Of a stretch of DNA of 41,826 bases, positions 7,490 to 41,481 are shown piece after piece. The stretch's first letter is position 1; each line of letters begins with the position of its first letter. The DNA comes from Kiloniellales bacterium (GTDB lineage Bacteria; Pseudomonadota; Alphaproteobacteria; Kiloniellales; J153). A program made the translations under genes and the position numbers. The stretch spans positions 1 to 41,826 of the forward strand of contig JAZGBC010000150.1 of the NCBI GenBank assembly GCA_036444495.1. The letters run 5' to 3'. The notes beneath the pieces were generated by a model. It ran no database searches and was not told the DNA's origin. It worked only from the letters and a program-made list of their open reading frames with translations.

Positions 7490-8193
7490 TGAGTTCTCTC
7501 TATAGGTAAGGCCTTTGTCTTGCCGGCCCGGTAGCGTCGGATCGACCCGCCGGTAGCTGCAGCCTCGGCTGGGCCGGCCGCGCGGCCCCGGACCAGGTCG
7601 ACCGGATCAGCGATCATCTGTCCAAGCGTGGCGGAAGTGGTGCAGCTGAAGACCGCCGCCGGCCGCGTGGCGAACCCCGGTTGCGGCGTGCTGCAGTCGG
7701 GTTGGATAACCATGGCGCGGGTCACGGTGACCGCCACGGCTTCCTCGGGCTTGGCCAGCGTTGTGATGGGCCTGACCGGGACCTCGCTGCGCAAGCCGAG
7801 GCGGGTGATTTCAGTCTCGATCGCGGACAAACGTTCTACCGTCAGGGTGTCGTGATATCCGGTCTTATCGCGCGGCCCGTCGATCTCGATGCGGGCGCCT
7901 TGATGCACGCCGCTCTGCTGAAGAAACTCGAGAAGTTGGTCGAGCTCGCCGGCGGGCAGTTGCGATTCACCCGGCTGGAAACTGACTTGGTGGACAACCG
8001 TGATCTCCTCGACCTGGCTGTCCATGAAAGGCGGCCGCTGGCGCCAGTTCGCATGATCGAAGGTATGGCTGCTGAATGCCTCGATCGGGTTGCTCTGGCC
8101 TTCCGAGACGTGGCAACCGGCGAGCAGGAGCCCAACTCCTGTCAGCAGGATGGAGAGCTTGGCGAAACGAGTCTTGGACTTTGTCTCTGTCAT
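7486..8193 (-). CDS. cpaD: Pilus assembly lipoprotein CpaD
   Basis: ATG at 8193 with a GAGGAGG RBS; lipobox LLAGC; C-terminal C...F.C....LGQMIADP.DL..GR...PA motif; sits between cpaC and cpaE. Confidence 0.8.
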   Translation of the reverse strand: MTETKSKTRFAKLSILLTGVGLLLAGCHVSEGQSNPIEAFSSHTFDHANWRQRPPFMDSQVEEITVVHQVSFQPGESQLPAGELDQLLEFLQQSGVHQGARIEIDGPRDKTGYHDTLTVERLSAIETEITRLGLRSEVPVRPITTLAKPEEAVAVTVTRAMVIQPDCSTPQPGFATRPAAVFSCTTSATLGQMIADPVDLVRGRAAGPAEAAATGGSIRRYRAGKTKALPIERTQ

Positions 8194-8203
8194 CGAGCCC
8201 TCC

Positions 8204-9574
8204 TCAATCCAGAATATAGCCCGCCGTACCCGGCTGGCCGGCGATGCTGGGGCCCGCGGCGGGAACCGGGATCGTGCGCGAGGTTTGTGTCCGCAGCGCA
8301 ACGGCGTTCGGCGGCGACTTCGTATAGGGATCGGTCGGCAGCGGAATACGGTCGCTCACCGGCTTTACGATATAGGGCGTCACGATGATGACCAGCTCGG
8401 TCTCCCGCCGCTCGAAGCGCTCGCTTCTGAACAGCTGGCCGAGAATCGGGAGATCGCCTAGCCCGGGAATCCTGTTGACCAACTCTTGTGAGTTGTCCTG
8501 CAACAAGCCGGCGATGGCGAAGCTCTGCCCGGAGCCGAGCTCGACCGTGGTCTCCGCGCGGCGGATCGACAACGCGGGAATCTCGAACCCGTTGATGCTG
8601 ACGGCGCCCGCGGTGGACAAGGAGCTGACCTCGGGACGGACCCGCAGGTTGATCCGGTTGCCCGAGATGATGGTCGGTGTGAACGACAGGCTCACGCCGA
8701 AGGGGCGAAACTCGATAGTGACACGGTCGTCGGTCGAGGAAACGGGTATGGGGAACTCGCCGCCGGCCAGGAAGCTGGCCGTCTCGCCCGACAGGGCCGT
8801 CAGGTTGGGTTCGGCCAGGATCGTGATTAAGCCGTCGTCGGCGAGCGCATCGATTAGGCCGTCGACGCTATGATTGGCGCTCCCGAAGCCAATGCCCAGT
8901 AGGCTTGTGGCCTCTTCAGTCGGAAATCCCGTGACGAGGGCACCCGCGAATTTGCCGAAATCGAAAATGTAGTCCCAGTTGAACCCGAAGCGGTTGAGTA
9001 CGTCACGCGAAGCCTCGGCCACGCGGACCCGGAGGTTGATCTGGTTGGGCTCCGTGACCGCCAGACGGTTGATGACTTCCTCGCCGCGGCCGATAAAACG
9101 GGCGGCCAGGCGCCGGACGTTTTCCGCTTCCGTCGCGCTTTCCACGGCGCCGTCCAGGATGAGGGCGCCTTCGACCGAGGTGATGCCGATATCGGCTGCC
9201 GGAACCAGGGCATCGAGGGCCTGCTTCAGGCCCGTAATGTTGTGCTGCACCACGACGTCGGTGTTGAGGATGATGTTGTTGGCGGCGTCCAATGCGTAGA
9301 GCGAGGTCCGGCCGGGCCCGCGGCCGAAGAGATAAACCAATTGGTTGGTGCGAACCGTGACGTCGGCCACATTGGGGTTGACGATGAAAACCGAGGCCGC
9401 CGGCTGGGCCAGGCGGAGAAGCTTGCCCTGGTCGAGTTGGATCATGATCTGTTCGCCGGACGGGGGAACGATTTCTCCTGACTGCATCTGTTGCTGCGCC
9501 CCGGCCGCCAACGGCCAGAAGGCGGCGATGACGAGCAGAAGTCTCAGGATTCCCTTACAGCGCGTCTGGTTCAT
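8204..9574 (-). CDS. cpaC: Tad secretin CpaC/RcpA
   Basis: Signal peptide; QINLRVRVAE.SR, LAEPNLTALSGETASFLAGGEFPIP, RRAETTVELGSGQSFAIAGLL, P.LG.LF.S......TELVIIVTP. Confidence 0.95.
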   Translation of the reverse strand: MNQTRCKGILRLLLVIAAFWPLAAGAQQQMQSGEIVPPSGEQIMIQLDQGKLLRLAQPAASVFIVNPNVADVTVRTNQLVYLFGRGPGRTSLYALDAANNIILNTDVVVQHNITGLKQALDALVPAADIGITSVEGALILDGAVESATEAENVRRLAARFIGRGEEVINRLAVTEPNQINLRVRVAEASRDVLNRFGFNWDYIFDFGKFAGALVTGFPTEEATSLLGIGFGSANHSVDGLIDALADDGLITILAEPNLTALSGETASFLAGGEFPIPVSSTDDRVTIEFRPFGVSLSFTPTIISGNRINLRVRPEVSSLSTAGAVSINGFEIPALSIRRAETTVELGSGQSFAIAGLLQDNSQELVNRIPGLGDLPILGQLFRSERFERRETELVIIVTPYIVKPVSDRIPLPTDPYTKSPPNAVALRTQTSRTIPVPAAGPSIAGQPGTAGYILD

Positions 9575-10644
9575 TGTTCTTCCGACTTGTTTTCATCCGA
9601 GCTGCTTCCGCTCGCCGTCTGTTCACCGGGCTTCCGCACGTTGGGACCGGCGCCGGTCCCCGATGGCTGGGCGGTGAAGTCGAAGTTGAGCGAATCCATG
9701 CCGCCGAGGAGGCCACCGAGGAGGTTGCCGACCAGGCCCCCGATGCCTGCGCTTCCGACGCCGCCGCCCCGGTCGACCCGCACCGCCCTGACCTGACTTC
9801 CGCGCTGGACCACCACTGTCTGCTTGTTGTCTCGCCCCTGCTTCTTGGGCCCGGCAAGGAGACGGCTGGCCTCGGTATCCCAGGTGTGTGTGGTGCCGCG
9901 GGCCGGGTCGGGCTCGCCCAGGGGCTCGTCCGAGTTGGCCAGTCGCTCGAGCTCTTCCTCGTCCTTCGCCAAGCTGCGCAGCACGAGCGACAGTCTGCCC
10001 AGCTCGGTCACGACGGCCAGCATCTCGGCCTGCTTCGGCGTCACCTCCAGGGTGGCGTTCTTGCCGACTTTGGGTGAGTTCTTCTGGTCATTGATCCGGT
10101 GGTCGATGGCCAGGACGCGCACATTCGTGAGCACGGTTTCACTGGCCCGGCGCGTGCCGCTCGCGCGCTTGATCTTATGGGTCAAGATTATGTCAACCCG
10201 ATCGCCCGGGAAGACCAGACCGGAGATGCCCGAGGTGGCGTTGACCTTGATCGCCATGGCCCGGTAACCCGGCCGCAGCACGGCGGCCAGGAAGCCGCGC
10301 TCACCAGGCTGGATGATGCGGCCGACAGTGATCGGCTCGCCCGCGGTGATGCCCCGGCGCACGACCGAACCGATGAGCTCCTTCTGGTCCTGCTTGCCCT
10401 TGACCATGTACTTGGGATGCAGCTTTTCGTCCGGCCAGGCTTGCCAGGAGATGTGGTTTTCCTTGAGGAAAGTGCCGCTCGGCAGGTTTTTCTTCGCCAC
10501 CAGGACATAGGTCGCCTTGGGCGCCGGCGCCTCGGGAGCCGCGACCTGGACGCGCTGACTGTTGATCCAGCTGCGCGCCACCAGGCCGGTTCCCGCGGTG
10601 ATGAGAACGGCCGCCAGGATAAGGATTATATTTCGCACCGACAT
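9571..10644 (-). CDS. cpaB: Flp pilus assembly protein CpaB/RcpC
   Basis: N-terminal TM helix, SAF domain (VLVAKKNLPSG), PGYRAMAI.V....GISGLVFPGDRVDIILT, VLTNVRVLAID, TLEVTPKQAE.L. Confidence 0.93.
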   Translation of the reverse strand: MSVRNIILILAAVLITAGTGLVARSWINSQRVQVAAPEAPAPKATYVLVAKKNLPSGTFLKENHISWQAWPDEKLHPKYMVKGKQDQKELIGSVVRRGITAGEPITVGRIIQPGERGFLAAVLRPGYRAMAIKVNATSGISGLVFPGDRVDIILTHKIKRASGTRRASETVLTNVRVLAIDHRINDQKNSPKVGKNATLEVTPKQAEMLAVVTELGRLSLVLRSLAKDEEELERLANSDEPLGEPDPARGTTHTWDTEASRLLAGPKKQGRDNKQTVVVQRGSQVRAVRVDRGGGVGSAGIGGLVGNLLGGLLGGMDSLNFDFTAQPSGTGAGPNVRKPGEQTASGSSSDENKSEEQ

Positions 10645-10648
10645 AGCT

Positions 10649-11155
10649 TCAGTTTAACCTTAACAACGTAAACGCCACGTAAAGCCCGCCCACACCGATG
10701 GCGGCGCCATAGGGCATGGGCTGGCTGCCGAAATCCGGGTCGCTCCCGACCTGAAAGATCATGCTCGGGACCGGCGCCCTGGAGATCCGGTGATGGAGCC
10801 AGAGAAAGGCCACGATCACGCCGCCGGCCAGGGTCGTCAGAACGGTGTAGGGGAGGACCATGTCCGGACCGGCCCAAAGCGCGGCCGCGGCAAAGAGCTT
10901 GGCGTCACCCCCGCCACAGATGCGAAAGGAAAAGAGCAGAAAGCCCAGGGCCAACAGGCCGGTGGCGATGCTGAAGGACATGAGCCAGGCCACCGGCTCC
11001 GGCGCCGAGAGGACGTAGGCCGGATAGAGAAGGCCAATGGCCAGGCACAGCCGGTTCGGCACCGTGAAGGACAGGATGTCGCTCACGGACGCGGAAAAGA
11101 GCAATACCGCGAATGAAAGAATCGCTATGCCCGAGACGATCGCGGAGGCATCCAT
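10649..11155 (-). CDS. cpaA: Prepilin peptidase CpaA/TadV (A24 family)
   Basis: A.VSDI.SF.VPN, GGGDAKL.AA, MPYGAAI; start may be ATG 11155 or GTG 11170. Confidence 0.92.
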   Translation of the reverse strand: MDASAIVSGIAILSFAVLLFSASVSDILSFTVPNRLCLAIGLLYPAYVLSAPEPVAWLMSFSIATGLLALGFLLFSFRICGGGDAKLFAAAALWAGPDMVLPYTVLTTLAGGVIVAFLWLHHRISRAPVPSMIFQVGSDPDFGSQPMPYGAAIGVGGLYVAFTLLRLN

Positions 11156-11177
11156 CGGTTCCAATCGCACTGACTAG

Positions 11178-11220
11178 AAAAATAGGGGCCGGAGGCGAAA
11201 TGCACCCCGGCCCCTTTTTT
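11178..11220. terminator. Rho-independent terminator (possibly bidirectional) between flp and cpaA
   Basis: AAAAAT-AGGGGCCGG-N14-CCGGCCCCT-TTTTT; on the minus strand the stem is followed by ATTTTT. Confidence 0.8.
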
Positions 11221-11280
11221 CAGGTTTATTGGAGACGGCTCCCTAGAAAAGGGGCTCATCCCATTATTGTTCTTTCGGGT

Positions 11281-11469
11281 TTAGCTGCCGGAGGCCGCAA
11301 CCGCGTTGGTCAGCTCGTTAGCCACCGTCCCGAACAGGGTCTTCAGCGAGTTACCCATGGCGGTCAGAGCGCTAATAGCGGCGACCGACACGAGCGCGGC
11401 GATCAAGCCATACTCGATGGCGGTCGCGCCCGACTCGTCGCTGCAGAAATTCTCAAAACGCTTCAACAT
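11281..11469 (-). CDS. flp: Flp family type IVc major pilin
   Basis: DESG|ATAIEYGLIAALVSVAAI Flp motif; AAGGAG RBS upstream of ATG 11469. Confidence 0.96.
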   Translation of the reverse strand: MLKRFENFCSDESGATAIEYGLIAALVSVAAISALTAMGNSLKTLFGTVANELTNAVAASGS

Positions 11470-11528
11470 GAACGTTCTCCTTGTGTACAGCGCATCATCA
11501 TCAGATACCATTATTTAAAGGAAATACC

Positions 11529-11543
11529 TTAATAAAAAGTAAA
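11529..11543. promoter_or_regulatory. CtrA-like site upstream of flp (one mismatch)
   Basis: TTAA-taaaaag-TAAA versus consensus TTAA-N7-TTAA; AT-rich context, so a chance match is possible. Confidence 0.4.
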
Positions 11544-11770
11544 AGAACAACAGAAAGACAATCGCTTCGATAAGTATTCAGACTGTATTTGCGTCGTATT
11601 TTATTTGTATTTGCTTTGAGATAGGAAAGATAAGTCTAAATTATTATTTACTCAGCTAGCTCTTGGGTGAGCTCGGATATCTTGCCCCAATCCCTGAGGA
11701 AGACTCGTATAACTAACTAATTTTAAAGATAAATCTTTACTTGCACGGACGGCAGACCGGCGCGGCCCGT

Positions 11771-12910
11771 TTAAGCCGCCGTAAAATCCGCACCCGGTTG
11801 GGTCGTTCCTACAGCGGGCGCGGCCCGCCGGCTGGCGGCCAGGGCGCGGCCCACGGCCCACCAGATGAGCCAAGTGGCCAGGATCGCCACGTAGCCGTCG
11901 ATGGCGTAATGCCAGCCCAGGTGGACCGAGCCGACCAGGAGCAGGACGAGGAACAAGCAGCTGGCGATCCTCAAGGCCCGGTGCAGGGGCCAAGCCAGTA
12001 GGACCAGCAGGAAGCCCATGGCGATGTGCAGGCTGGGCATGGCCGAGATGCCGGTGCCGATGCCCAGCCGGCCGTTCTCGTACTGTTCGAGCAGGTGGGC
12101 CTGGATAAAGGCCGAAGGCAGATAGGTATCCGCGGCCACCGAGTCCAGATAGGCCATCAGCGGCGCGAAGGGGTTGGGGTCGCCGGCGAAATAGCCGTAG
12201 TAGACCGGGCCCGCCGAGGACAGGACGGTGGCCAGGCCGTTGGCCAGCAGGATCCAGCAGAGCAGCGTGGTGAGCAGGACCTGGAGGCGCCGCGGGTCGA
12301 GCGTGAAGGTCTGCCAGAACAGCAGGAACAACACCACTGCGTACCAGGGCAAGGAGTAGGCGTGCGATATGAGCGTGGTCACGGTTGGCGACCCTAGGAG
12401 GGGCTGCAGCAGCTCCCAGGGGTGATAGCCGCCGTGGAGCACCCGGTCGATCTCGGCCAGCGTCGGATCCCAGCTGAAGGGCGCGATGAGCGGGATCATG
12501 CGTTTGAGCGAGGTCACCGCCGAGTGGACGAGCGGCAGCAGGAAAAAAGCGGGCAGAGCGCTCATGAGCCGGCGGGAGGTCAGGACTTGGCTTCTCAGGT
12601 CGTCCCAGACGAAGCGCAGCGGTCGGCTCGGCCGGTTCTTGGCGATAAGCCAGATGGCGCGTCCCAGAATCCAAGCAACGGCGAAGAACAGGTAGAGGAA
12701 CGTCTGGAACCCGCTATAGAGCGACAGGGTCACGCTCTGGCCGTGCCATCGCCCGATGGTGAAGGCCAGCAGCAGATAGCTCACCGCCAGGGCGATGAAC
12801 CAGCGTTGTTCGTGCAGGACGGCCAGGAACTCGGCGGCGGATCGCCAGGCTCCGCCCCGCGCTTGGGCCGCGCGTGTCGTATCGGGCAGGCTGGCTTGTG
12901 CTCCGGCCAT
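11771..12910 (-). CDS. PAP2 superfamily membrane protein (PAP2_3 / Aur1 inositol-phosphorylceramide-synthase-like)
   Basis: Multiple TM helices; WD..LA..D..LHGG..PW, SAGP.YY, ISAMPSLH (C2 motif), VHLGWHYAIDG (C3 motif); start ATG 12910 or GTG 12931. Confidence 0.85.
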   Translation of the reverse strand: MAGAQASLPDTTRAAQARGGAWRSAAEFLAVLHEQRWFIALAVSYLLLAFTIGRWHGQSVTLSLYSGFQTFLYLFFAVAWILGRAIWLIAKNRPSRPLRFVWDDLRSQVLTSRRLMSALPAFFLLPLVHSAVTSLKRMIPLIAPFSWDPTLAEIDRVLHGGYHPWELLQPLLGSPTVTTLISHAYSLPWYAVVLFLLFWQTFTLDPRRLQVLLTTLLCWILLANGLATVLSSAGPVYYGYFAGDPNPFAPLMAYLDSVAADTYLPSAFIQAHLLEQYENGRLGIGTGISAMPSLHIAMGFLLVLLAWPLHRALRIASCLFLVLLLVGSVHLGWHYAIDGYVAILATWLIWWAVGRALAASRRAAPAVGTTQPGADFTAA

Positions 12911-13060
12911 CTCTTCGCTCCCCTGCGGCACAGGGTTGTCCGCGCGCGGCCGCCGCCTTTGGCCGTGGGACCAGAATTAGTCAGGCCCGGTTTTCAAATC
13001 GTTAATGGCGCTTCGATTGGAGAGCGCGCGGCCCGGGATGGGACCGGCATGAAGAGCCGT

Positions 13061-13534
13061 CTAGTTGATCACCATGGTGGAGCTGCGCCCGAACTGGATG
13101 GGATCGATCGGCAGGAACCCGGTCATGAGAAACTCGTAGGGATAGCCCACCCGTACCGTCACGGTACCGCCTTCGACGTTGCTCGGGGCCCAGGTGACGT
13201 TGACGGTCAATTGCTTGCTGTCCAGCCCCGGCGCCCGGTTCTGGACGTAGGACTTCACGTCCGACTCGGTGGCGACCGTGGGCTTGCCCTGGCCGCGGAT
13301 GGCCGCGTAACGCGCGCCCTCGGCGGCGGCGTGCTCGATGGTGGAGTTGATCCACATGGCCCGCCCGAAATCCATCACGCCGAACATGATCAGAAAGAAG
13401 GCCGGGGCGATGAGGGCGAATTCAACGGCGGCCTGGCCGCTCCGGTCCCTCAGGAGTCGCAGTCCGCGGCTCAGGCGTTCGAGCATTCGCTGCAATCCTT
13501 TTCCATATCCCATCGGGCCCGTGGCTTTCCGCAC
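13061..13534 (-). CDS. TadE-like minor pilin
   Basis: RDRSG|QAAVEFALIAP...MFGVMDFGR...HAAAEGARYA; exact start uncertain. Confidence 0.9.
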   Translation of the reverse strand: MRKATGPMGYGKGLQRMLERLSRGLRLLRDRSGQAAVEFALIAPAFFLIMFGVMDFGRAMWINSTIEHAAAEGARYAAIRGQGKPTVATESDVKSYVQNRAPGLDSKQLTVNVTWAPSNVEGGTVTVRVGYPYEFLMTGFLPIDPIQFGRSSTMVIN

Positions 13535-13535
13535 C

Positions 13536-14045
13536 TCACCGTACCCGCATGGTGTTGGTCGAGGTGACCGGGCGCGGCGAGGTAATGCCCGTGTACTGGA
13601 ACAGGAGGGGCACGTTGTTTGTCACGGTGACTTCCACGTACATGATGGGAAAGATCGAATCGTCGCTGCCTCCGGTACACAGGCCCGTGCAGTCGACCGC
13701 GCCGCTATCGCTGCATACGCAGTACTGCCGGGCGCTGACATCGAGCGCGTTCTGATCGTCGCTGGCATCGTTGCGCGCCGCCTGTTCCATTCCCGCGGTG
13801 TCGGCGGCCACGGAGGAATTCTGCGCCCCGTACTGGGTACCGGCGCGCGCGGCGTTGGCCACGGTGATCTTCTGCAGCCCGAGATTGCCGAAATCGAAGG
13901 CGCCGAGTCCTAGGGATACCAGGATGGGCAGCACGAAGGCGAATTCGATCGCCACGTTGCCGCCCCGGACCCGGCGAAATGCCTCGATCGCCCGAAGGGG
14001 CGCGGCGGCGATGCGGGCCGACTTGCGAATTGTTTCTTTGAGCAT
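13536..14045 (-). CDS. TadE/TadF-like minor pilin
   Basis: RGG|NVAIEFAFVLPIL...GAFDFG...ANAARAGTQYG; Cys-rich loop YCVC...C...C; GGAGG RBS before ATG 14045. Confidence 0.9.
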   Translation of the reverse strand: MLKETIRKSARIAAAPLRAIEAFRRVRGGNVAIEFAFVLPILVSLGLGAFDFGNLGLQKITVANAARAGTQYGAQNSSVAADTAGMEQAARNDASDDQNALDVSARQYCVCSDSGAVDCTGLCTGGSDDSIFPIMYVEVTVTNNVPLLFQYTGITSPRPVTSTNTMRVR

Positions 14046-14076
14046 CGTTTGAGTCCCTCCGCACAAGGATCCGCGA

Positions 14077-15378
14077 TTACTCGATAAGCGTGGCTTCGAT
14101 CAGCAGCGGGTTCTGCAGGATCGGGGTGTCCTCGAAGCCGCCGATGTTCGTGTTGCCGACGAAAGTGACCGTGTCGGCGATGATCAGCGAGGTCGAGGTG
14201 TTGAGCTCCGACCCCCCCGAGAATCTGACGTCCTGGTTGGGGAAGTAGAGGATGCCCTCCAGGTTCATGGTCGAACCGCCCGAGAAGCTATGGGTTATGT
14301 TGCCCACCGTGTTGCGGTCGTGATAGAAAAGGATGCCGGGCATGTCGGCGTTGCCGCCGTCGGCCGTCAGGGTCACGGTGCCGCCGGTGATGTTGATGTT
14401 GTCCGCCGTGCCCGAGTTCTCGGTCAGATAGAAGTTGACGTCCGTTCCGGTCACCGTGGATGCGCCGCCGATGCTGAGACCGGCGCCGTCCAGGATGTAG
14501 AGGCCCGGGTCGAAGTCCAGGGTTCCGCCGTTGACGGTGATTTTGCCGCAGTAGTGACCCGGCGTGAGCGTCAGGGTATCGCCGGCGCCGAGACTGTAGT
14601 TGGTGTTGTCGGTGCAGCCGCCCGGCACATAGCTGCTCGGCGGGCCGAGCGATCCCAGCGGGTCGCTCACCGGCGTCACGCCGGTGACCGGCGTGGAGCC
14701 GAAGCAGTCGCCGGAAGCGCCGCCCACCACCCTGACCTCGGTCGCGTTCAGGCAGGAGGTCGAACCGTTCTCGACCACGCCGCTGGAATTGGACGAGTTG
14801 GAGAGCACGCCGCAGCCCAGGTTCACTTCGGAGGTACCGGAGACCTTGATGGCGCCCGAATCGGTCGAATTGAGCGACCAGACGCAGGTGTCGTTGAGGG
14901 CCGCCATGGCGACCGCGCGCGCCGAGATGGTGGGCGTGCCGCTGAAGACCAGCTGGCTCAGGAAGCTCTGGCTGGTCCGCGTGATGATCACCTCTACCGA
15001 ATCGGTCGAATCTTTGTTCGGACCCGAGGTGGGTGGATAGTAGATTGTGATGGTGTCGCCGTTGGCGTCGGTGAAGCCGTTGACGCCCGCATCAGCGGTG
15101 GCGGAGGCCAGGACCTCGCTCTCCACGCTGTTGGAGCGCAGTATCTGCAAGGCGCCGGAAATGGCGGCGGAATCGGCGGCGCTCTGCGCCATGCGCGCCT
15201 GCGAATACCAGATGCCCACATCGACCGACAGCCCGGCGAAGCCCAACAGCATGGGGGCCGCGATCGCGGTATAGACAAAGATGGTCCCGCGGCGGTCCCG
15301 CCAAAATCGGTGTAGATTGCGTCGTAGGATGCGATTGATCGCCTTCATCACCTGCACGCCTCTTTTCGCCTCTTCCAT
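14077..15378 (-). CDS. TadG-related pilin/adhesin (N-terminal Tad domain, Gly/Ser/Thr/Asn-rich C-terminal beta domain)
   Basis: RDRRG|TI..YTAI..P.LLGFAGLSVDVG..Y......Q.AADSAA..GA; C-terminal LTPGHYCG, FDPGLYILDG, GILF..DR, GILYFPNQ.V.FSG repeats; start 15378 or 15348. Confidence 0.87.
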   Translation of the reverse strand: MEEAKRGVQVMKAINRILRRNLHRFWRDRRGTIFVYTAIAAPMLLGFAGLSVDVGIWYSQARMAQSAADSAAISGALQILRSNSVESEVLASATADAGVNGFTDANGDTITIYYPPTSGPNKDSTDSVEVIITRTSQSFLSQLVFSGTPTISARAVAMAALNDTCVWSLNSTDSGAIKVSGTSEVNLGCGVLSNSSNSSGVVENGSTSCLNATEVRVVGGASGDCFGSTPVTGVTPVSDPLGSLGPPSSYVPGGCTDNTNYSLGAGDTLTLTPGHYCGKITVNGGTLDFDPGLYILDGAGLSIGGASTVTGTDVNFYLTENSGTADNINITGGTVTLTADGGNADMPGILFYHDRNTVGNITHSFSGGSTMNLEGILYFPNQDVRFSGGSELNTSTSLIIADTVTFVGNTNIGGFEDTPILQNPLLIEATLIE

Positions 15379-15491
15379 CGACTCCAGACCCCGTCCGGTC
15401 GATGCCGGATTTCATGGCAGGTGGCTGCCATTCACCCGCGATCGCCCGAGACACAACGGTCTTCCACGCACATGAATTATGCGAAAGCCGG

Positions 15492-15507
15492 GTTAAGGAC
15501 TCGTTTA
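15492..15507 (-). promoter_or_regulatory. CtrA-like binding site upstream of tadG, containing a GANTC site
   Basis: Minus strand reads TAAA-cgagtcc-TTAAC (one mismatch to TTAA-N7-TTAAC), followed 10 nt later by CATAAT; GACTC at 15498-15502. Confidence 0.6.
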
Positions 15508-15657
15508 GGATTGAAGTGGATTTAAGATTTATTCTTGCGGCTGGAATAATATTTCTAGTAATAACACCTATTGTTTACTTGCGGTTGGCGGGGCGGCTGT
15601 GGCGGTTCCGATTCCCGCGCAGGACGCCGGCCATGGCTATCAAAGCCTTAACGGGCT

Positions 15658-17628
15658 ATGCCCATACTCCCGCCCTCGAAACGCTGGCGCCCGGCCTCGA
15701 AACAGATACGGACCGAACCCTTGGCGTCCTCCGATAGTTCAGACCTAAGCACTCTTCGTCACAGCGGCGCACAATGGCGCCAGCTGGACGACGGCCAGGT
15801 GTTCGCGGCCGTGGCCATGGCGTTGTTGCTGGTGATCGTCATCCAGGTGGGCATGGTCCTGCGGGGCGACGCCTCGGTGCTCGATGGTGTACTGGCCGAC
15901 CCCGACGCCTACTTGCGCTTGGCCCGAATCGACCGTCTGGCGGAAACCGGCGCCTGGTTCGATTCGGTAGAGTCCCGGATCAACCCGCCCGGCGGCTTCG
16001 CGCTGCATTGGACCCGGCCGCTCGATGCCCTGATTCTCGGAGGGGCCTACCTGGGCAGCCCGTTCCTAGGCTTTGACAAGGCCTTGTTCTGGTCCGGCGC
16101 CGTCGTCAGCCCCCTGTTGCAGTTGCTCTCCCTGATCGCGCTCGTCTGGGCTAGCCGGCCGGTCCTGCCGCGCCTTTGCCGCTGCCTTCTGGCCTTCTTC
16201 TATGTGGCTCAGCCCGGCATCCTCGCCATGTTCATTATGGGCCGCGCCGATCACCACGGCCTGCTTATCCTGTGCTGTATCCTTCTGCTCGGCCTGACCA
16301 TCCGGCTGCTTCTGAATCCGGACGACCTGGGCAACGCCGTCTGGGCCGGGCTCGTTGCCGCCTTCGCGATTTGGATCAATGTGGAGGCGCTGCTCTTCGT
16401 CGTCGTGACCATAGCCGCGCTCGGACTGTTCTGGCTGCTGGTCGAGGCCCGGCTGGCGCGCGCCTGCCTGGTATATGCCGCGGCGATTTTGGCCAGTCTG
16501 GGCGCGGCCCTGCTGGCCGAACGAGGCGTTGCCGGCCTGGGTGACTATGAGATCGACCGGCTATCCATCGCCCACATCGTTCTGTTCGCCGCCAATTTCA
16601 TCTACTGGGCCGCGATGGACCTGGTGCAGCGGCGGGGCCGGGGATCATCGGCCCTGGGGCCGCGGGCCGTGTGGGCCGGGGCCGGCATTGCGGTGACCCT
16701 GGGCTTGTTGTGGTGGATGCACCCGGCCTTCTTCGCCGATCCCATGGCTCTGGGCGACGAGCTTTATCTGACCAAGCACATGGCCAATATCGAGGAGCTT
16801 CAGCCCCTGTTCGCAGCCCCCGGAGAGGGCGGGAGCTGGCCCAAGGCGCTGGCCAGGCCGGTCCTGTGGCTCGGTATCGCGCTGCCGGCGGTTCCCTGGT
16901 TGCTCCACCTGATGCACCGATCGCCGGGGCCGGAGCGCCGGGTCTGGGTCTTCTTCGCGCTCGGCCTGTTGCTGTTCACGCCGTTCGGCGTCCTGCATTT
17001 ACGCTGGGTCATGTATCCGGAGCTTTTTCTCGTGATTCCCTACGCGGCCCTGGCCGGGGCGTTGGTGGCCAGGCTTGCCGACGCCTTGAGCGAAAACGCG
17101 CTGAGCATCGTCCGGCCTCTTGTGATCGCGGGGTTGGCGATCTGGTTCTACGTCCCGACGTTTGCCACCCAGGCCGGCCCGCCGGTAGGCGCGTCGGAGC
17201 AAAGCGCCGTGAGCTGTCCGCTTCGCACCTTGGCCCCGGTCCTGGACGATCCGGCCGGCCTGGGCGCCGCGCCCAAGCGCGTCCTCGCCTTTATCGATTT
17301 CGGTCCCGAGCTGATCTACCGCACGAAGCATTCCGTCTTCGCTATCCCGAACCACCGGCGCCAGCCGGGCTTTACGCTGGGTTACGGGATCATGACCGCG
17401 ACCGACTTCGGCCGGGCGCGGGACGATCTGCTGCTGGCCGGCATCGATTTGATACTGATCTGTCCGGGGTCGGTCGAAGGCTGGTTCTATTCGACCGAGG
17501 AACCGGGCCGCACCCTGTACCAGACCCTGGCGGCCGATGAGCCGCCCGCCTTCCTCGAACCGATCGCCCTGCCCGGCGTCCTGGCCGAGCACTTTCGGCT
17601 GTTCAGCCTGCGCAAAAGCGCGGAGTGA
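15658..17628 (+). CDS. Polytopic GT-C fold membrane protein, STT3/AglB/PglB oligosaccharyltransferase-like
   Basis: About a dozen hydrophobic segments plus a soluble C-terminal domain; DPDAYLRL, LHWTRPLD, GRADHH, NIEELQPL and FIDFGPEL..RT.HSV.A.PNHR occur in the order of the STT3 motifs; true start may be downstream (about 15799-15818). Confidence 0.65.
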   Translation: MPILPPSKRWRPASKQIRTEPLASSDSSDLSTLRHSGAQWRQLDDGQVFAAVAMALLLVIVIQVGMVLRGDASVLDGVLADPDAYLRLARIDRLAETGAWFDSVESRINPPGGFALHWTRPLDALILGGAYLGSPFLGFDKALFWSGAVVSPLLQLLSLIALVWASRPVLPRLCRCLLAFFYVAQPGILAMFIMGRADHHGLLILCCILLLGLTIRLLLNPDDLGNAVWAGLVAAFAIWINVEALLFVVVTIAALGLFWLLVEARLARACLVYAAAILASLGAALLAERGVAGLGDYEIDRLSIAHIVLFAANFIYWAAMDLVQRRGRGSSALGPRAVWAGAGIAVTLGLLWWMHPAFFADPMALGDELYLTKHMANIEELQPLFAAPGEGGSWPKALARPVLWLGIALPAVPWLLHLMHRSPGPERRVWVFFALGLLLFTPFGVLHLRWVMYPELFLVIPYAALAGALVARLADALSENALSIVRPLVIAGLAIWFYVPTFATQAGPPVGASEQSAVSCPLRTLAPVLDDPAGLGAAPKRVLAFIDFGPELIYRTKHSVFAIPNHRRQPGFTLGYGIMTATDFGRARDDLLLAGIDLILICPGSVEGWFYSTEEPGRTLYQTLAADEPPAFLEPIALPGVLAEHFRLFSLRKSAE

Positions 17629-17673
17629 CGAGTCGATCCGATGAAGAAGGGCCACCCGGCCGGGCGGGTGGCG

Positions 17674-18417
17674 TCAACCGATCCGGCTATTGGACAGGAA
17701 GATCGTCCAATTGAAAATCCCGGGTAGGGTAGGGGCCGGTTCGGGCGGTTGCGGCGCGCGTGCGGGTTGCGCCGCCGTCGCTGCCGAGGGGACCTTGAGC
17801 CGCAGACAGCTACGCAGCTTTTGACTTTCGGGCTCCAGCCCAACGTCCCCGACGAGATCTTCCAGGGGACGGGTCAGGATGTCGGGCAGCTTCTGGAACG
17901 GTTCCGCCGGGGCCGAAAGGGGCGCGGCCGGGGAGGGAGCGGCCGCTTGCGGCGCACCGTTCTGATGGGGCACGGCGCGTTCGAGCAGGTCCAGGATGGC
18001 CACGAGGACCGGTTTGATATCCTCCGTCACCTCGTCGCGCAGCGATTTCTCGAAGCTATTCTGGCTGGGGCCGGCGCCGGGAATGCCGGCGCGTTCGCTG
18101 AGCCGCTCCACCTGGCTCTGCAGTTGCTGACGGAGGACCTGTTCGCGCTGCTGGATTTGCAGGAAGGTCTCGATGCGATCCAGCAAGCGCGCGTTCTCGG
18201 CCGACAGCCGCGCGATCTCGCCCGACTGAACGGTAATGATGCGGTCCAGCGCCTCGTAGGAAACGTCCGGCAAAGCGGCCGCCGGTTGCTCGCTGCCGGC
18301 GGCTGATGCGCCCTGTACCTCGACTGGCGAGGAGGGCTGCGCCGGGCCGCTCTCAGGCTCGGCCGCTGCGTCCGCCGCCGTGGCGGCGCTCGAGCTGTTG
18401 TTCGAGGACTTGTTCAC
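17674..18417 (-). CDS. Hypothetical coiled-coil protein
   Basis: Low-complexity N-terminus; heptad segment QSGEIARLSAENARLLDRIE...QQLQSQVERL; immediately downstream of the TPR-SPOR gene. Confidence 0.65.
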   Translation of the reverse strand: MNKSSNNSSSAATAADAAAEPESGPAQPSSPVEVQGASAAGSEQPAAALPDVSYEALDRIITVQSGEIARLSAENARLLDRIETFLQIQQREQVLRQQLQSQVERLSERAGIPGAGPSQNSFEKSLRDEVTEDIKPVLVAILDLLERAVPHQNGAPQAAAPSPAAPLSAPAEPFQKLPDILTRPLEDLVGDVGLEPESQKLRSCLRLKVPSAATAAQPARAPQPPEPAPTLPGIFNWTIFLSNSRIG

Positions 18418-18439: not shown

Positions 18440-19930
18440 CTAACCGGCAGAGGAACCGCCCGCTTCCGGCTGTTCCTTGACGATCAGGCAATCCATGCCG
18501 CGTTCCTTGAGCGCCATACACAGGAGGTCGGCCGCGTCCTTGGTCTGGAGACCCGTGCGCAGGCGATAAAATATCCCCTTGTCGGCGCCGAGGTCGGCGC
18601 GCCGTACTTCCGGCTCGATCTCGGCCAGCAGGTCGGGCGCCAGGCGGCGCAGTTCTATCCAGCCTTTCCGCGCCCGCTCCTCGCTGCGGTAGGAGGCGAA
18701 CTGAACGGCGTAGACAACCGCCGGCACCCACTGGGTCATCTCCGGCTGGCTGGACGGCAGCGCCGCAACCCGGGATTCGCGCTGCGAGATGGCGTTATCG
18801 GCTGCCGTGGACGTGCCGCCATTCACGTCGACGGAGAGGTAGTCGCCGAACAGGGCGACGGACCGGTCGGCATCCGTCACGCCCGTGGTCAAGGCGGCGG
18901 TCTGCGTCTGGGTGGGTGAGGCCGGTTCATTGCTGGAGCCCGAATCGGTTTGGTTTTCGCCCCAATCCGGATAGGACCGGCCGGCCGTGGCGTCGGTATC
19001 GAACATGTCATCGCTGGCGTCGGGCTTGCGGGCGTACTGTTCACGCGTCGCCGGCGAGAGAGCGATCGGGGCCGAGGCCGGTTCCTTGAGCGCCGTGGAG
19101 TCGACCGGGCCGGAAACCGCTGCAAGATTCCCGACGGGCATATCGTCGGCCGTGGCGGCCGTCTGGGCCCCGTCCGGCCCGGGTGCGCCGCCGAGCATTT
19201 CGAGGGAGGCGAGGGCCACATCCGACAGGTGGGTGCTGTACAGGCCCTGGGCGAGATCGAGGTTCTGGCGGCTGGTATCGTCGGCCGCCGGATTGGCGGC
19301 GACTTCCTCGAGGATCGTGATGCCTTCCACGTAGCGGCCGCTTAATGCCAGGGACAGGCCCAGGTTGCTGCGCAGCGAGAGATCGCGCGGCGATGCCTTG
19401 AGCCCGGCCCCGAAGGCCTCCTGGGCGGCGGCGTGTGCGCCCAGCAGTCCATTCGCGACCCCGAGGGCATTGTAGATGCGCGGATCTTCGGGCCTGTGCT
19501 TTCGCGCGGTCTCGAGATGGGTCAACGCCAAGTCGTACTGCTCGAGCGAGACATAGGCTTTGCCCAGCCGGTAGTGTGCCTCGGTGTTCTCGGGCGAGGT
19601 ATCCAGAATACGCTTATACGCGATGGTCGCCTGGCCGATCTCGCCCATCTGGGTCAGGATCTCGGCCAGCTTGAACAGGGGCTCGGGGTTCGTGGGGTCG
19701 AGTTGGTGTGCGCGATCGCAAAGCCCGATCGCGGTCGCCAGGTCTCCCCTGCTGTAGAGCCTATCGCAGTATTGAATAAGCTGCCCCGTGCCGCCATCGT
19801 ACTTCTTGTCGATGGCGCCATAGGCCGTCGGAGCCGGGTTGGACAGACCGGCGCAGCTCGCCGTGACGAGCATTGCGCCCAAGGCCGTGACAATCTGTGC
19901 CGGCCGGTTCCTGAGGTGCGTCTTTTTCAT
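18440..19930 (-). CDS. TPR-repeat (TadD-like) lipoprotein with C-terminal SPOR domain
   Basis: Lipobox LVTASC; TPRs (AHYRLGKAY, IYNALGVA, LRSNLGLSLALSG, SRQNL.LA.GL); SPOR AVQFASYRSEERA..GW..L....RADLG..G.FYRLR.G....A..LC..LK.RG.DC; probable start ATG 19930. Confidence 0.88.
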   Translation of the reverse strand: MKKTHLRNRPAQIVTALGAMLVTASCAGLSNPAPTAYGAIDKKYDGGTGQLIQYCDRLYSRGDLATAIGLCDRAHQLDPTNPEPLFKLAEILTQMGEIGQATIAYKRILDTSPENTEAHYRLGKAYVSLEQYDLALTHLETARKHRPEDPRIYNALGVANGLLGAHAAAQEAFGAGLKASPRDLSLRSNLGLSLALSGRYVEGITILEEVAANPAADDTSRQNLDLAQGLYSTHLSDVALASLEMLGGAPGPDGAQTAATADDMPVGNLAAVSGPVDSTALKEPASAPIALSPATREQYARKPDASDDMFDTDATAGRSYPDWGENQTDSGSSNEPASPTQTQTAALTTGVTDADRSVALFGDYLSVDVNGGTSTAADNAISQRESRVAALPSSQPEMTQWVPAVVYAVQFASYRSEERARKGWIELRRLAPDLLAEIEPEVRRADLGADKGIFYRLRTGLQTKDAADLLCMALKERGMDCLIVKEQPEAGGSSAG

Positions 19931-20059
19931 CGTCTTCTGCCCTTTGCACACACGACTTTGTTATTCGTTCGCCGGCCCCTTTTTGTTTCTTCCCATTCTT
20001 CCTGATTGCGGGTTTATCGGGGCCGGGGTAGTTGTGGATTCACATCCCTTCTTTCTCCA

Positions 20060-23468: not shown

Positions 23469-25034
23469 GTGAGTGAGGCTCAGTCAGGCAACAGGCGGCG
23501 CGGTGGCCGCCAGGCGCGGCGCGAGTTGCGCGCGGCACCCCCCGCCGAGGACCAACGCGCGGTACAGGCCGGCATGTCCGGCGGGCTCTATCGGCCGCTC
23601 AACGAGGCCGAGGTGAGGCGCATCCATCAGGCCGCGCTCGATGTTCTCGAACGGATCGGCCTGAGCGATGCTATCCCCTCCTGCGTCGAGCTGGTGACCG
23701 GGGCCGGCGGCAGGCTGAGCGAAGAGGGCCGTCTTCTCTTCCCCAGGGCGCTGGTGGAGGACACCATCGCCAAGGCCGCGCGGCGCTTTCCGCTCTATGG
23801 CGCCGACCCCAAGCACGACATGGAGCCCTGGGACAAGCGGGTCTATTTCGGCACGGCGGGAGCGGCGGTGCACATGGTGGATGCCGTGACCGGCGCCTAC
23901 CGGGAATCCACGCTCGCCGACCTCTACGACGTCGCGCGCCTGGTGGACGCCCTGGACCACATCCATTTCCTCCAGCGCCCCATCGTGCTGCGCGACCTGG
24001 AGGACAGCCGCGATCTGGACTTCAACACCTGCTACGCCGCGGTCTCCGGCACCAGCAAGCATGTGGGCACCAGCTTCTTCCAGCCCGAGCACGTGGCGGA
24101 GGCGCTGGAGATGCTGCACCTCATCGCCGGCGGCGAGGAGAAGTGGCGCGCCCGGCCCTTCGTCTCCATGTCCTGCTGCTTCGTGGTGCCGCCGCTCAAG
24201 TTCGCCGAGGACGCCTGCCGCTGCATGGAGGCCGGGGTGCGCAGCGGCATGCCCATACTCCTGCTCGCCGCGGGTCAGGCGGGCGCGACCAGCCCGGCCG
24301 CGCTAGCCGGGGCGGTCGCCCAGGAGGTGGCCGAGGTGCTGGCGGGTTTGGTCTACGTCAACCTGATCGTGCCCGGGCACCCCTGCATCTTCGGCGCCTG
24401 GCCGCTCGTCTCGGATCTGCGCACCGGCGCCATGAGCGGGGGCAGCGGCGAGCAGGCGCTGCTGAGCGCGGCCTGCGCCCAGATGGCCCACTACTACGAC
24501 CTGCCGGGCAGCATTCCCGCGGGCATGACGGATTCCAAAGTTCCCGACGCCCAGTCGGGCTACGAGAAGGGCTACACCGTGGCGCTCGCCGCCCAGTCGG
24601 GGGCCAACTTGATCTACGAGTCCGCGGGCATGCACGCCAGTCTTCTCGGCTTCTGCCTGGAGAGTTGCGTCATCGACAACGACATGCTGGGCTCCATCAT
24701 GCGCACCGTGCGCGGCATCGAGGTGAGCGAGGACAGTCTCTCGGTCGAGGCCATGCGCCAGGTCTGCGAGGAGGGGCCGGGGCATTTCCTGGGCCACGCC
24801 CAGACGCTCGATCTCATGCAGAAAGACTATGTCTATCCCGACGTGGCCGACCGCACGAGCCCGAAGGAGTGGCTCGAGCAAGGCTCCACCGATGTCGTTC
24901 AACGCGCGCGGGCGCGGACCCAGGAAATACTGACGCGGCACTATCCTGCGCACATCGGCGGAGCCCTGGACGCGCAACTGCGTGAACGCTTCCCGGTCAA
25001 GCTGCCGCGTGGCAACATGCGGCCCAAACAATAA
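23469..25034 (+). CDS. Trimethylamine methyltransferase (MttB) superfamily protein, non-pyrrolysine
   Basis: RR.GR.AR...R N-terminus, IHQAALDVLE.IG, GATSPA.LAG..AQ..AE.LAG, SDLRTGAMSGG.GE, DSK.PDAQ.GYE, GPGHFLG..QT; no in-frame TAG. Confidence 0.92.
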   Translation: MSEAQSGNRRRGGRQARRELRAAPPAEDQRAVQAGMSGGLYRPLNEAEVRRIHQAALDVLERIGLSDAIPSCVELVTGAGGRLSEEGRLLFPRALVEDTIAKAARRFPLYGADPKHDMEPWDKRVYFGTAGAAVHMVDAVTGAYRESTLADLYDVARLVDALDHIHFLQRPIVLRDLEDSRDLDFNTCYAAVSGTSKHVGTSFFQPEHVAEALEMLHLIAGGEEKWRARPFVSMSCCFVVPPLKFAEDACRCMEAGVRSGMPILLLAAGQAGATSPAALAGAVAQEVAEVLAGLVYVNLIVPGHPCIFGAWPLVSDLRTGAMSGGSGEQALLSAACAQMAHYYDLPGSIPAGMTDSKVPDAQSGYEKGYTVALAAQSGANLIYESAGMHASLLGFCLESCVIDNDMLGSIMRTVRGIEVSEDSLSVEAMRQVCEEGPGHFLGHAQTLDLMQKDYVYPDVADRTSPKEWLEQGSTDVVQRARARTQEILTRHYPAHIGGALDAQLRERFPVKLPRGNMRPKQ

Positions 25035-25067
25035 CCGGCGCGGCTTGCCGCCTAGGGGAGGACAGGA

Positions 25068-31158: not shown

Positions 31159-31168
31159 GGCGAAGATC

Positions 31169-31957
31169 ATGAGCGATGCCGTACGCAGCGAGCGCCGGGG
31201 CGCGGTGCTCGAAATCACCCTGGACCGGCCCAAGGCCAACGCGATCGATTCGCTGACCAGCCGCGCGCTGGCCGAGGCCTTTCTCTCCCTGCAGAACGAT
31301 CCCGAACTGCGCGTGGCCATCATCACCGGCGGGGGCGGGAAGTTCTTCTCCGCCGGCTGGGACTTGAAGGCCGCCGCCGCGGGCCAGGAGACGCTGGATG
31401 GGGACTATGGGCCGGGCGGTTTCGCGGGCCTCACCGAACTCTTCGAGCTGGACAAGCCGGTCATCGCCGCGATCAACGGCCTGGCCGTGGGCGGCGGCTT
31501 CGAGCTGGCGCTGGCTTCGGACATGATCGTGGCGGCCGAGCACGCCGAATTCTTCCTGCCCGAGATCAACCTGGGCATCATCGCCAACGGCGGCGGCGTC
31601 CTGCGCCTGCCGCAGCGCATACCCCAGGCCATCGCCATGGAGATGCTGCTCACCGGCCGGCGCATGGGCGCCAAGGAGGCCGCCCACTGGGGCCTGGTCA
31701 ATCTCATGGTCCCGGCTTCGGACCTGATGGCCACGGCGCGCAAGATGGCGGCGCAGGTTGCCGCCGCCGCGCCGCTTTCCATTCGGGCCACGAAGGAAGT
31801 GGTGCGCGCCACCCGGCAGCTGAGTGTGGAGGAGGGCTACGCGGTCATGAACGGCGGCGGGTTGGAGGTGTACGAGCGCATGCTGGCCTCCGAGGACGCC
31901 AAGGAGGGCGCGCGCGCCTTCGCAGAGAAACGCGAGCCGGTCTGGCGGGGCGCCTGA
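31169..31957 (+). CDS. caiD: Carnitinyl-CoA dehydratase (crotonase family)
   Basis: [65 protein letters not shown]; closely matches the CaiD pattern. Confidence 0.85.
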
Positions 31958-39221: not shown

Positions 39222-39224
39222 GTC

Positions 39225-39974: not shown

Positions 39975-40017
39975 CAAAGTTTTCGTCCCTCTCCCTGACT
40001 CCAATCACCTTGCCGTC

Positions 40018-41481
<1,464 letters not shown>

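Follow-up and report, generated by a model that had tools for sequence, protein, structure and literature searches.

An STT3/AglB-like glycosyltransferase beside a tad locus belongs to a bacterial family in which the sequon reader appears to have been replaced

Introduction

STT3-type enzymes, among them eukaryotic STT3, Campylobacter PglB and archaeal AglB, are defined by reading the sequon N-X-S/T. They have a GT-C fold with about 13 transmembrane helices and an extracytoplasmic domain at the C terminus, a DK/MI motif completes their Ser/Thr pocket, and euryarchaeal AglB uses monophosphate-linked donors. Section 4.2 of PMC10859629 states that the Trp-Trp-Asp (WWD) residues are strictly conserved in STT3 proteins and hydrogen-bond the Ser/Thr at position +2 of the sequon. 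Here we describe a gene, which we call STT3L, at 15658..17628 (+ strand) of a 41,826-nucleotide stretch of Kiloniellales bacterium DNA (contig JAZGBC010000150.1 of assembly GCA_036444495.1; this whole stretch is "the window" below). STT3L lies beside genes for a Tad pilus and almost certainly encodes a GT-C glycosyltransferase of the STT3/AglB superfamily.

Several other membrane transferases use polyprenyl-linked sugars. DPY19, as the titles of its structure entries describe it, is an STT3-like GT-C enzyme that places a monosaccharide from a polyprenyl monophosphate onto a protein motif other than N-X-S/T. The preprint bioRxiv 10.1101/2020.04.19.049825 describes TfpW, a GT-C protein encoded beside pilA that glycosylates the type IVa pilins of Pseudomonas aeruginosa group IV from a polyprenyl-phosphate sugar, in a pathway that includes a PAP2-type phosphatase homologue. 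The GtrA/GtrB/GtrC, ArnC/ArnEF/ArnT and Rgt systems have lipid A or O-antigen as acceptors. As for the Tad pilus itself, PMC6668835 derives Tad systems from an archaeal Epd-like pilus transferred to bacteria, and PMC3875500 reports that the N-glycan of the Methanococcus maripaludis Epd major pilin needs AglB and that piliation does not.

Results

We first give the evidence for the fold. The AlphaFold model of STT3L (predicted local distance difference test 91.7, predicted template modelling score 0.92) has 14 long helices at residues 45-504, followed by a small alpha/beta domain at 512-656. Foldseek ranked yeast STT3 (8agc, E 6.8e-13), Archaeoglobus fulgidus AglB (7e9s, E 2.1e-12) and human STT3A/B at the top, DPY19 (E 1.4e-8) and PglB (E 8.5e-7) lower, and ArnT far behind (E 3.7e-4). 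With VIA-align the best match was A. fulgidus AglB (3waj, Z 30.6, root-mean-square deviation (rmsd) 3.1 Å across 519 residues), followed by yeast STT3 (Z 29.4), human STT3A (28.8), PglB (23.9), DPY19 (21.9), ArnT (21.1) and PMT (about 19). The C-terminal periplasmic alpha/beta domain (residues 513-652; 17194..17613, + strand) is homologous to the globular core domain of AglB-S, aligning with that of AglB-S2 (3vu0) at Z 13.6 and rmsd 2.3 Å over 126 residues. A profile of 55 relatives matched 3vgp (E 8.2e-6) and 3vu0 (E 4e-5), which are C-terminal domains from two AglB-S proteins of A. fulgidus, and this family profile had no other significant sequence match in the PDB. Because of the structure matches and the match of the C-terminal domain, we conclude that STT3L is a full STT3/AglB-type GT-C protein with a minimal, AglB-S-like periplasmic domain.

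Family models scarcely register this relationship. STT3L had no Pfam match, whether to STT3, PMT_2/PMT, Dpy19, Wzy_C or TPR, and left a trace with the NCBIfam model archaeo_STT3 (12 bits vs a cut-off of 450, E 0.04). PF02516 found nothing in the organism's own genome and was reached at E <= 0.01 by 3 of the 55 relatives. Searched against the PDB, the STT3L sequence alone gave nothing beyond a chance match, and the relative P0092 (phmmer) gave no useful match. A word-indexed search returned 123 relatives, nearly all without a name; three had a precomputed PF02516 assignment, two were called "asparagine N-glycosylation enzyme membrane subunit Stt3" by the Joint Genome Institute (JGI), and one (P0113) was called "Glycosyltransferase RgtA/B/C/D-like" in UniRef. 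One neighbouring cluster in the ESM Atlas bears PF10034. Two other assignments were considered and rejected: membership of the ArnT/PMT_2 (GT83/GT39-like) group, for which there was no Pfam match and the structural scores were Z 21 for ArnT and about 19 for PMT vs 30.6 for AglB; and a Wzy_C-type O-oligosaccharyltransferase (PglL/PilO/TfpO), for which there was no Wzy_C domain and the fold was STT3-like.

The open reading frame (ORF) has 656 codons, although the translated protein is probably shorter, starting at a GTG at codon 48 (15799) to give 609 amino acids. GC content at third codon positions is 0.70 over the first 47 codons (15658-15798) and 0.84-0.87 in the remaining gene, the alignment of relatives begins only at residues 41-50, and the ESM Atlas copy of STT3L begins at residue 48. 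A divergent, AT-rich spacer of 279 bp (15379..15657), with one sigma70-like match (15522-15550, + strand) by consensus only, separates STT3L from a tadG-like ORF of opposite direction (14077..15378, - strand), whose score of 33 bits exceeds the Pfam Tad (PF13400) cut-off of 22.3 bits. An earlier sequence-only reading of this DNA had proposed a polytopic STT3/AglB-like GT-C protein at 15658..17628, with four motifs in a fixed order and head-to-head with tadG. The ORF, the order of the motifs and the gene arrangement are as it described them, and the model and the structure and profile matches given above bear out its view of the protein.

Conservation across 55 aligned relatives, the set to which all residue counts below refer, separates the putative catalytic core from the acceptor site. 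In the first periplasmic loop, the motif DPDAYLRL (residues 81-88; 15898..15921, + strand) contains D83 (55/55), a candidate catalytic or metal-binding Asp at the start of the loop helix 82-97, together with R87 (54/55); Y85 and R90 are near-invariant. GRADHH (residues 195-200; 16240..16257, + strand) retains D198 in 55/55, H199 in 54/55 and H200 in 52/55. The second motif of A. fulgidus AglB is likewise D-x-H, and in a weak full-length profile match (E 0.24) the family's "aGraDHH" aligned to "AGSYDNE" of STT3A, with DHH on D-N-E. E243 in NVEA (residues 241-244; 16378..16389, + strand) is invariant (55/55), as are W118, R120 and D123. NIEELQPL (residues 377-384; 16786..16809, + strand) lies in a long EL5-like loop between helices 368-377 and 394-405 and contains E380 (53/55), a candidate equivalent of the TIXE/SVSE Glu. 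E380 falls in loop 378-393, the profile alignment is offset by six residues from that Glu, and the surrounding E-x-Q-P resembles SVSEHQP.

The acceptor side is different. By alignment of hidden Markov models (HMMs) to AglB-S, FIDFGPEL (residues 545-552; 17290..17313, + strand) occupies the WWDYG slot, the family's "fiDlGPeLlY" falling exactly on "WWDYGnwilY" of the AglB-S C-terminal domains. Trp occurs at either of its positions in 0/55 relatives, Asp in 37/55 and G549 in 53/55; what the family conserves here is GPELLYRT and, 10 residues on, P-Y/N-H-R. Because the slot never carries Trp and carries Asp in only 37 of 55 relatives, STT3L is very probably not a sequon-dependent oligosaccharyltransferase (OST), and because it lacks the WWD feature we place the family outside the functional STT3/AglB group. 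The catalytic core thus appears to be kept and the Trp-Trp(-Asp) reader of the +2 Ser/Thr to be lost across the family. The sequence-only reading had seen retained acidic positions and a degenerate WWDYG in this one protein. The invariance of D83, D198 and E243 takes these motifs beyond chance and extends the pattern to the whole family, its placing of FIDFG in the WWDYG slot agrees with the register on both AglB-S domains, and the role it gave to WWD is in line with the part of PMC10859629 cited above.

STT3L belongs to a very large family. An exhaustive profile search of 1.84 billion representatives (clusters at 50% identity) returned 8,569 proteins at E <= 1e-3, of which 6,315 reached E <= 1e-10 and 3,397 reached E <= 1e-30. 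In an even sample of the organism's class, STT3L was present in 50/401 genomes and 43/308 genera. A sample of the phylum had it in 46/401 genomes at E <= 1e-20, 42 from the same class (own genome included) and 4 from other classes, a tally that takes in one unpublished genome (G813). Within the organism's own family it was found in 9/13 genomes. A single-protein locus search found one distant relative in a Gemmatimonadales metagenome-assembled genome among genome contigs and no related locus among metagenome contigs, and plasmid records held no homologue. Tandem or divergent paralogue pairs occurred in 7/57 sources (L035, L042, L052, L060, L062, L064, L084), and one genome (G401) had three copies with sister sequences, one tad-linked and two near a GT2 gene. 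An unusual relative of 1041 amino acids (L059:9004-12126, - strand) has an N-terminal extension of about 400 amino acids before the STT3L body. Pfam has no model for the family, and the literature within reach of our search, which excluded subscription journals and supplements, held no description of it. By its sequence pattern, then, this would be a branch of the STT3 superfamily with a replaced acceptor reader, itself undescribed as far as our searches reach.

We next asked how often STT3L accompanies tad genes. Among 64 full-length copies, 14 had a tad gene 0-1634 bp away, within 420 bp in 12 of those 14. Nine of the 14 have flp as their nearest tad gene, four have tadG and one has tadB/C. 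Flp adjacency within 420 bp was seen in seven relatives; the window copy adjoins tadG instead. Six of the 40 class-sample loci were tad-linked (tblastn found L039, L042, L043, L057 and L063, and Pfam and HMM matches added L047), as were six of nine loci fetched from the window's family. In the latter STT3L sits at differing positions: beside three tadG paralogues (L072), divergent from tadG (L073), between unk247, a flanking gene described below, and PAP2-flp (L076), divergent from flp (L077, L078) or after two PAP2 genes (L087). At L047, STT3L, a Flp pilin gene and a second Flp-like pilin gene lie on the same strand, and nothing else of a tad locus was found in 20 kb; a partial copy in G407 has an RcpC gene about 6 kb away on the same contig. 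By reasoning rather than a computed test, adjacency this tight would be rare if overlap with the ±9-kb span were due to chance.

This association has arisen or been lost repeatedly. On a maximum-likelihood tree of the 64 copies, the tad-linked ones are spread over several separate clades, and explaining the tad label takes 8 gains or losses, of which at least 6 are forced by branches with ultrafast bootstrap (UFBoot) >= 95 and SH-aLRT >= 80; rows on long branches, L042_10002 and L088 among them, are uncertain. A single origin of the linkage was allowed by 0/200 bootstrap trees, and the label was still more clustered than in shuffles (4/500 as low). Flp genes were found in 41/50 carrier and 154/351 non-carrier genomes, raw counts that ignore phylogeny and genome size and include, among the non-carriers with Flp, one unpublished genome (G240). 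The co-occurrence with tad loci predicted from the letters therefore stands in part: linkage is recurrent and independent (14/64 copies, at least 6 events), and most copies are unlinked.

To characterize the gene neighbors, we took about 20 kb around 40 class-sample copies (five on contigs <8 kb) and around 17 closer ones. Of the ORFs no more than two genes away from STT3L, 154 in number, the scan covered 119 and mostly passed over those that were short or came from the near-duplicate loci L062 and L064. ORF clustering showed that the commonest neighbor is a GT2 glycosyltransferase (cluster c1), in 12/40 class-sample loci. By HMMs, 26 of the 64 full-length copies had a GT2 gene within 2 kb and no tad gene, and L088 is a further case. 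The best solved relatives of this GT2 are the Pyrococcus furiosus Dol-P-Man synthase (E 9.6e-13), ArnC and GtrB, and in NCBIfam it is closest to AglJ (down to E 1.8e-57, short of the cut-off), the haloarchaeal dolichyl-phosphate hexose transferase, and PpgS. The second recurrent neighbor, in 7/40 loci (L034:10901-12475, L035, L038:7422-9020, L039, L049, L060, L061), is a flavoenzyme of about 525 amino acids. It scores above the cut-off of NCBIfam NF005546 ("hypothetical protein"), and its closest likeness is to the eukaryote-type UDP-galactopyranose mutase (UGM; E 7e-20), a hint that some STT3L members may transfer a furanose. GtrA-family genes occurred only in L034 and L035 among the ORFs scanned, and L034 is a same-strand set of four genes, GtrA, UGM-like, STT3L and PAP2_3. 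Other neighbors encode S-adenosylmethionine (SAM) methyltransferases (L045, L046, L065), PAP2 (L054) and GT87 (L057). At this last locus (genome G069), an flp-STT3L pair is flanked by the GT87 gene, another GT-C (10821-11999, - strand), and an isoprenylcysteine-carboxyl-methyltransferase-like gene (7771-8499, - strand). No pgl-like oligosaccharide assembly genes were present among the 119 ORFs.

Because the commonest neighbor resembles AglJ and Dol-P-hexose synthases, the gene context points to a polyprenyl-phosphate-sugar donor, which we consider probable. Within that class, a point that the sequence-only reading had left open, a monophosphate-linked sugar is more likely than an oligosaccharide-diphosphate. 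By analogy, the neighbor set would follow a polyprenyl-monophosphate-sugar logic in which the sugar is loaded inside, flipped and transferred outside, and it also resembles the archaeal AglJ/AglB pairing.

A complete tad/cpa locus, all on the minus strand, occupies the left part of the window and comprises tadC (2548-3525), tadB (3522-4529), tadA/cpaF (4520-6226), tadZ/cpaE (6233-7489), cpaD (7486-8301), the secretin (8204-9574), cpaB/rcpC (9571-10644), the prepilin peptidase (10649-11170) and the Flp major pilin (11281..11511, probable start 11469, processing site G/ATAIEYGLIA). These are followed, also on the minus strand, by a gene of the PAP2_3 membrane phosphatase/phosphotransferase family (11771..12931; PF14378, 82.6 bits), tadE-like (13061..13534; PF07811, 65.8 bits) and tadE/F-like (13536..14066; PF07811, 42.4 bits) pseudopilin genes, and the tadG-like pseudopilin gene. 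On its other side, STT3L converges with unk247 (17674..18417, - strand), which encodes a 247-amino-acid protein of no Pfam or NCBIfam family; the two genes are 45 bp apart with a GC-rich hairpin (17651-17672) between them. Beyond it lies a TPR+SPOR gene (18440..19951, - strand). Both are conserved flanks in the window's family: in sister genomes unk247 adjoins the TPR+SPOR gene at the border of the tad locus, whether STT3L is there or not.

PAP2_3 is placed between flp and the pseudopilin genes. It recurs next to flp in 3/4 sister tad loci (genus g312) that have no STT3L and, away from tad loci, is an immediate neighbor of STT3L in the L034 operon (L034:8069-9046) and, as two copies, in L085/L086; its occurrences comprise L072, L076, L087, L095, L096, L098, L034 and L086. 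It has no PDB sequence relative and a weak NCBIfam likeness to phosphoinositol-dihydroceramide synthase. PAP2_3 as an obligate partner of STT3L in the window's family was rejected, given that it stays in three of four tad loci without STT3L.

We also note several features unconnected with STT3L. The organism's genome has three Flp_Fap matches in all, some outside the window (e.g., G000:C125:2032-2166, - strand), which may mark a second pilin locus. A T5orf172/MUG113 (GIY-YIG-like) protein is encoded at the left edge (250-1071, + strand), adjoining a CoA-transferase gene. The block at 23469-31957 (+ strand) encodes an MttB-family methyltransferase, an FAD oxidase fused to a GcvT-like aminomethyltransferase, a 3-hydroxyacyl-CoA dehydrogenase with thioesterase, an ADP-forming acyl-CoA synthetase and an enoyl-CoA hydratase. 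It probably forms a catabolic cluster of the quaternary-amine or carnitine type and is followed by a suf Fe-S cluster operon (36170-41481, - strand).

Finally, we considered the linked pilins as possible acceptors. The 13 linked Flp pilins share the G/ATAIEY site, have Ser/Thr/Asn-rich tails and mostly lack sequons. Asn density in the exposed tail was 0.143 for linked pilins (n=14) and 0.159 for the unlinked ones of carriers (n=11), against 0.089 in non-carriers (n=29) and 0 in g312 (n=4), with a Mann-Whitney p of 0.006 that ignores phylogeny and includes near-duplicates; Ser/Thr density did not differ (linked 0.25 vs control 0.29). We regard this modest Asn enrichment as a weak lead only. A predicted complex of STT3L with Flp prepilin reached a best score of 0.22 against a mark of 0.32 and speaks neither for nor against binding.

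Discussion

STT3L most resembles archaeal AglB, especially the A. fulgidus AglB-S (GT66), in being structurally nearest to it, in its minimal C-terminal domain and in the AglJ-like GT2 that accompanies many of its relatives. Unlike AglB, it is bacterial, has GPELLYRT and P-Y-H-R-N rather than WWDYG, and is missed by Pfam STT3. PglB (Z 23-24) and STT3 (Z 28-29) share its fold, and its acidic motif falls on D-N-E of STT3A, albeit in the weak match (E 0.24) noted above; however, STT3L has neither the WWD reader nor pgl-type neighbors, its periplasmic domain is far smaller and its donor is probably a monophosphate sugar. DPY19 offers a precedent for the kind of reaction proposed here, but STT3L has no Pfam Dpy19 match and is structurally farther from DPY19 (Z 21.9) than from AglB or STT3. 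TfpW is Emb-like with a TPR domain, whereas STT3L is STT3-like, has no TPR and is found in Tad (type IVc) loci. In relatives of STT3L the gene set recalls the Gtr, Arn and Rgt systems, with a GT2 carrier-sugar synthase, a GT-C enzyme and, in L034 and L035, a GtrA-family protein, but those systems modify lipid A or O-antigen and their transferases are of ArnT/Gtr type rather than of STT3 fold.

The explanation that we favor, tentatively and at somewhat less than even confidence, is that STT3L is a periplasmic polyprenyl-phosphate-sugar transferase with a non-sequon acceptor, which in the window's lineage is a Tad protein. It would be an inner-membrane GT-C glycosyltransferase descended from the STT3/AglB lineage, with the full transmembrane core and a minimal AglB-S-type periplasmic domain, and would act on the periplasmic face, taking its sugar from a polyprenyl-phosphate carrier. 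The carrier would most likely hold a monophosphate-linked mono- or short saccharide made by the AglJ/Dol-P-hexose-synthase-like GT2, and in some lineages a UGM-like step and GtrA-type flipping may precede transfer. Transfer would be metal-dependent, to an acceptor outside the classical sequon rule. In the window's lineage, where STT3L would be an accessory gene of the Tad locus, the acceptor could be the Flp pilin tail or the TadE/F/G pseudopilins, modified before or during assembly. That a Tad protein is the acceptor in the tad-linked members is, taken singly, a possibility that we lean slightly against; the pilin hypothesis of the sequence-only reading is strengthened by the recurrent linkage and unproven.

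Several observations weigh against this explanation. Fifty of the 64 full-length copies have no tad gene nearby, and nine of the 50 carriers have no Flp match (G018, G023, G052, G199, G203, G225, G254, G334, G354). RcpC is lacking in G232, G023 and G203, the latter two being 87% complete; G232 has a TadB/C-like pair, and G023 and G203 have only PilC-type two-domain T2SSF proteins. In the sister genus g312, all four genomes lack STT3L yet have RcpC, and the tad locus is syntenic (parA / PAS / TPR-SPOR / unk247 / PAP2 / flp / cpaA...tadC) with no STT3L. A search at E <= 10 detected no STT3L remnant in these four loci, three of which retain PAP2. Because g312 keeps a syntenic tad locus without it, Tad pili do not need STT3L, which is accessory cargo at the variable, flp-proximal end of the locus. 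The 13 linked Flp pilins have no conserved residue that would be an obvious acceptor (N40 occurs in 8/13), and PMC10710030 describes the Tad pilus of Caulobacter crescentus, in a strain that may or may not have this family, as having no extra density attributable to glycosylation.

The donor side also has its difficulties. The organism's own assembly (81% complete) has no AglJ-like GT2 or GtrA; its three weak GT2 matches are two TIGR04283-type genes and HpnB. In sister genomes G403 and G408, GT2 orthologues (52-53% identity) adjoin a different, PMT_2-like GT-C of about 575 amino acids (L092:4039-5766, L093:577-2331, L094:7111-8823). For these reasons the donor of the tad-linked copies is inferred from paralogues, such as those of G401. 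That the unlinked GT2 of G403 and G408 serves the tad-linked STT3L is unsupported, as it has its own PMT_2-like GT-C next door; in both genomes the AglJ-like GT2, the PMT_2-like GT-C, a second GT2 and a methyltransferase look like a separate polyprenyl-phosphate-sugar system. Lastly, a set of GT2, GtrA, PAP2 and GT-C is equally typical of lipid A or glycan modification.

This last point leads to the main rival, which we judge rather unlikely: that STT3L modifies an envelope lipid or glycan (lipid A, lipopolysaccharide core, periplasmic or capsular glycan, or glycosphingolipid) in the manner of ArnT, RgtA-D or GtrC, and that its tad position reflects co-regulated surface remodelling. The neighbors are the classical toolkit for such a task (polyprenyl-phosphate-sugar GT2, GtrA family, PAP2, SAM methyltransferases), the name given to P0113 is that of an Rgt enzyme, ArnT still aligns at Z 21, and the unlinked majority and the nine carriers without Flp speak for it. 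However, the fold is nearer to the protein-modifying AglB, STT3, PglB and DPY19 (Z 22-31), with Foldseek at E 1e-12 compared with 4e-4 for ArnT. The AglB-type periplasmic domain, which forms the peptide site, is kept under constraint with new conserved motifs, and the tight adjacency to flp or tadG arose or persisted on at least 6 separate occasions, one case being the STT3L-flp-flp cluster that lies apart from any tad machinery.

Alternatively, STT3L could glycosylate periplasmic proteins in general, accepting many substrates by a rule other than the sequon; Tad proteins would then be at most one target class and tad linkage, in some lineages, a matter of convenience or co-regulation. AglB, PglB, PMT and DPY19 each act on many proteins, and most members of this very large family lie outside tad loci. 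The paralogue pairs in 7/57 sources would fit diversified specificities, and in G401 the tad-linked copy is closely paralogous to the two GT2-linked ones. Against it, copies directly adjacent to flp recur, which argues for a dedicated relationship at least in those members, and we consider a general transferase unlikely.

A more specific proposal, which is improbable, joins the evolutionary strands: STT3L would be a bacterial AglB offshoot that kept the Asn-activating Asp/Glu, dropped the +2 reader, and glycosylates Tad pilins, themselves of archaeal Epd descent and with archaeal counterparts that are AglB substrates, at non-sequon sites from a polyprenyl-monophosphate sugar. This would give bacteria a third route to pilin glycosylation, based on STT3, and their first STT3-family enzyme with an acceptor rule other than the sequon. 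The Asn density of linked Flp tails fits this proposal, as a weak lead. A dispensable, accessory AglB-like enzyme beside Flp would parallel the Epd/AglB case, by shared ancestry or by convergence, both of which are possible.

Two further explanations are very improbable. A canonical N-oligosaccharyltransferase that, like PglB, moves a diphosphate-linked oligosaccharide to the Asn of N-X-S/T would suit the STT3 fold, the retained acidic residues, nearby PAP2 genes that could recycle polyprenyl diphosphate and the two JGI "Stt3" names, but both WWD Trp residues, strictly conserved in STT3 according to the cited section of PMC10859629, are absent in 55/55 relatives, the 119 neighbor ORFs hold no pgl-like assembly genes and sequons are absent from most linked Flp pilins. 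A scaffold without catalytic activity, or a Tad assembly factor, would agree with the place in the tad locus and the lack of a donor-synthesis gene in the own assembly, but the candidate catalytic residues are near-invariant in 55 divergent relatives, most relatives are paired with a sugar-carrier synthase and sister tad loci function without STT3L.

Whatever its acceptor, a very large bacterial branch, mostly alphaproteobacterial in the samples searched, keeps the core and the peptide-site domain of STT3 and has its reader replaced, and so appears to depart from the sequon reading by which STT3-type enzymes are defined. With an envelope lipid as acceptor, STT3L would show the OST fold turned to a target that is not a protein. 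With a protein as acceptor, it would bring a new acceptor rule for the OST fold, of interest to glyco-engineers. Should the pilin explanation be true, it would amount to the first dedicated glycosylation system for Tad pilins, one that would tie in with the archaeal ancestry of Tad.

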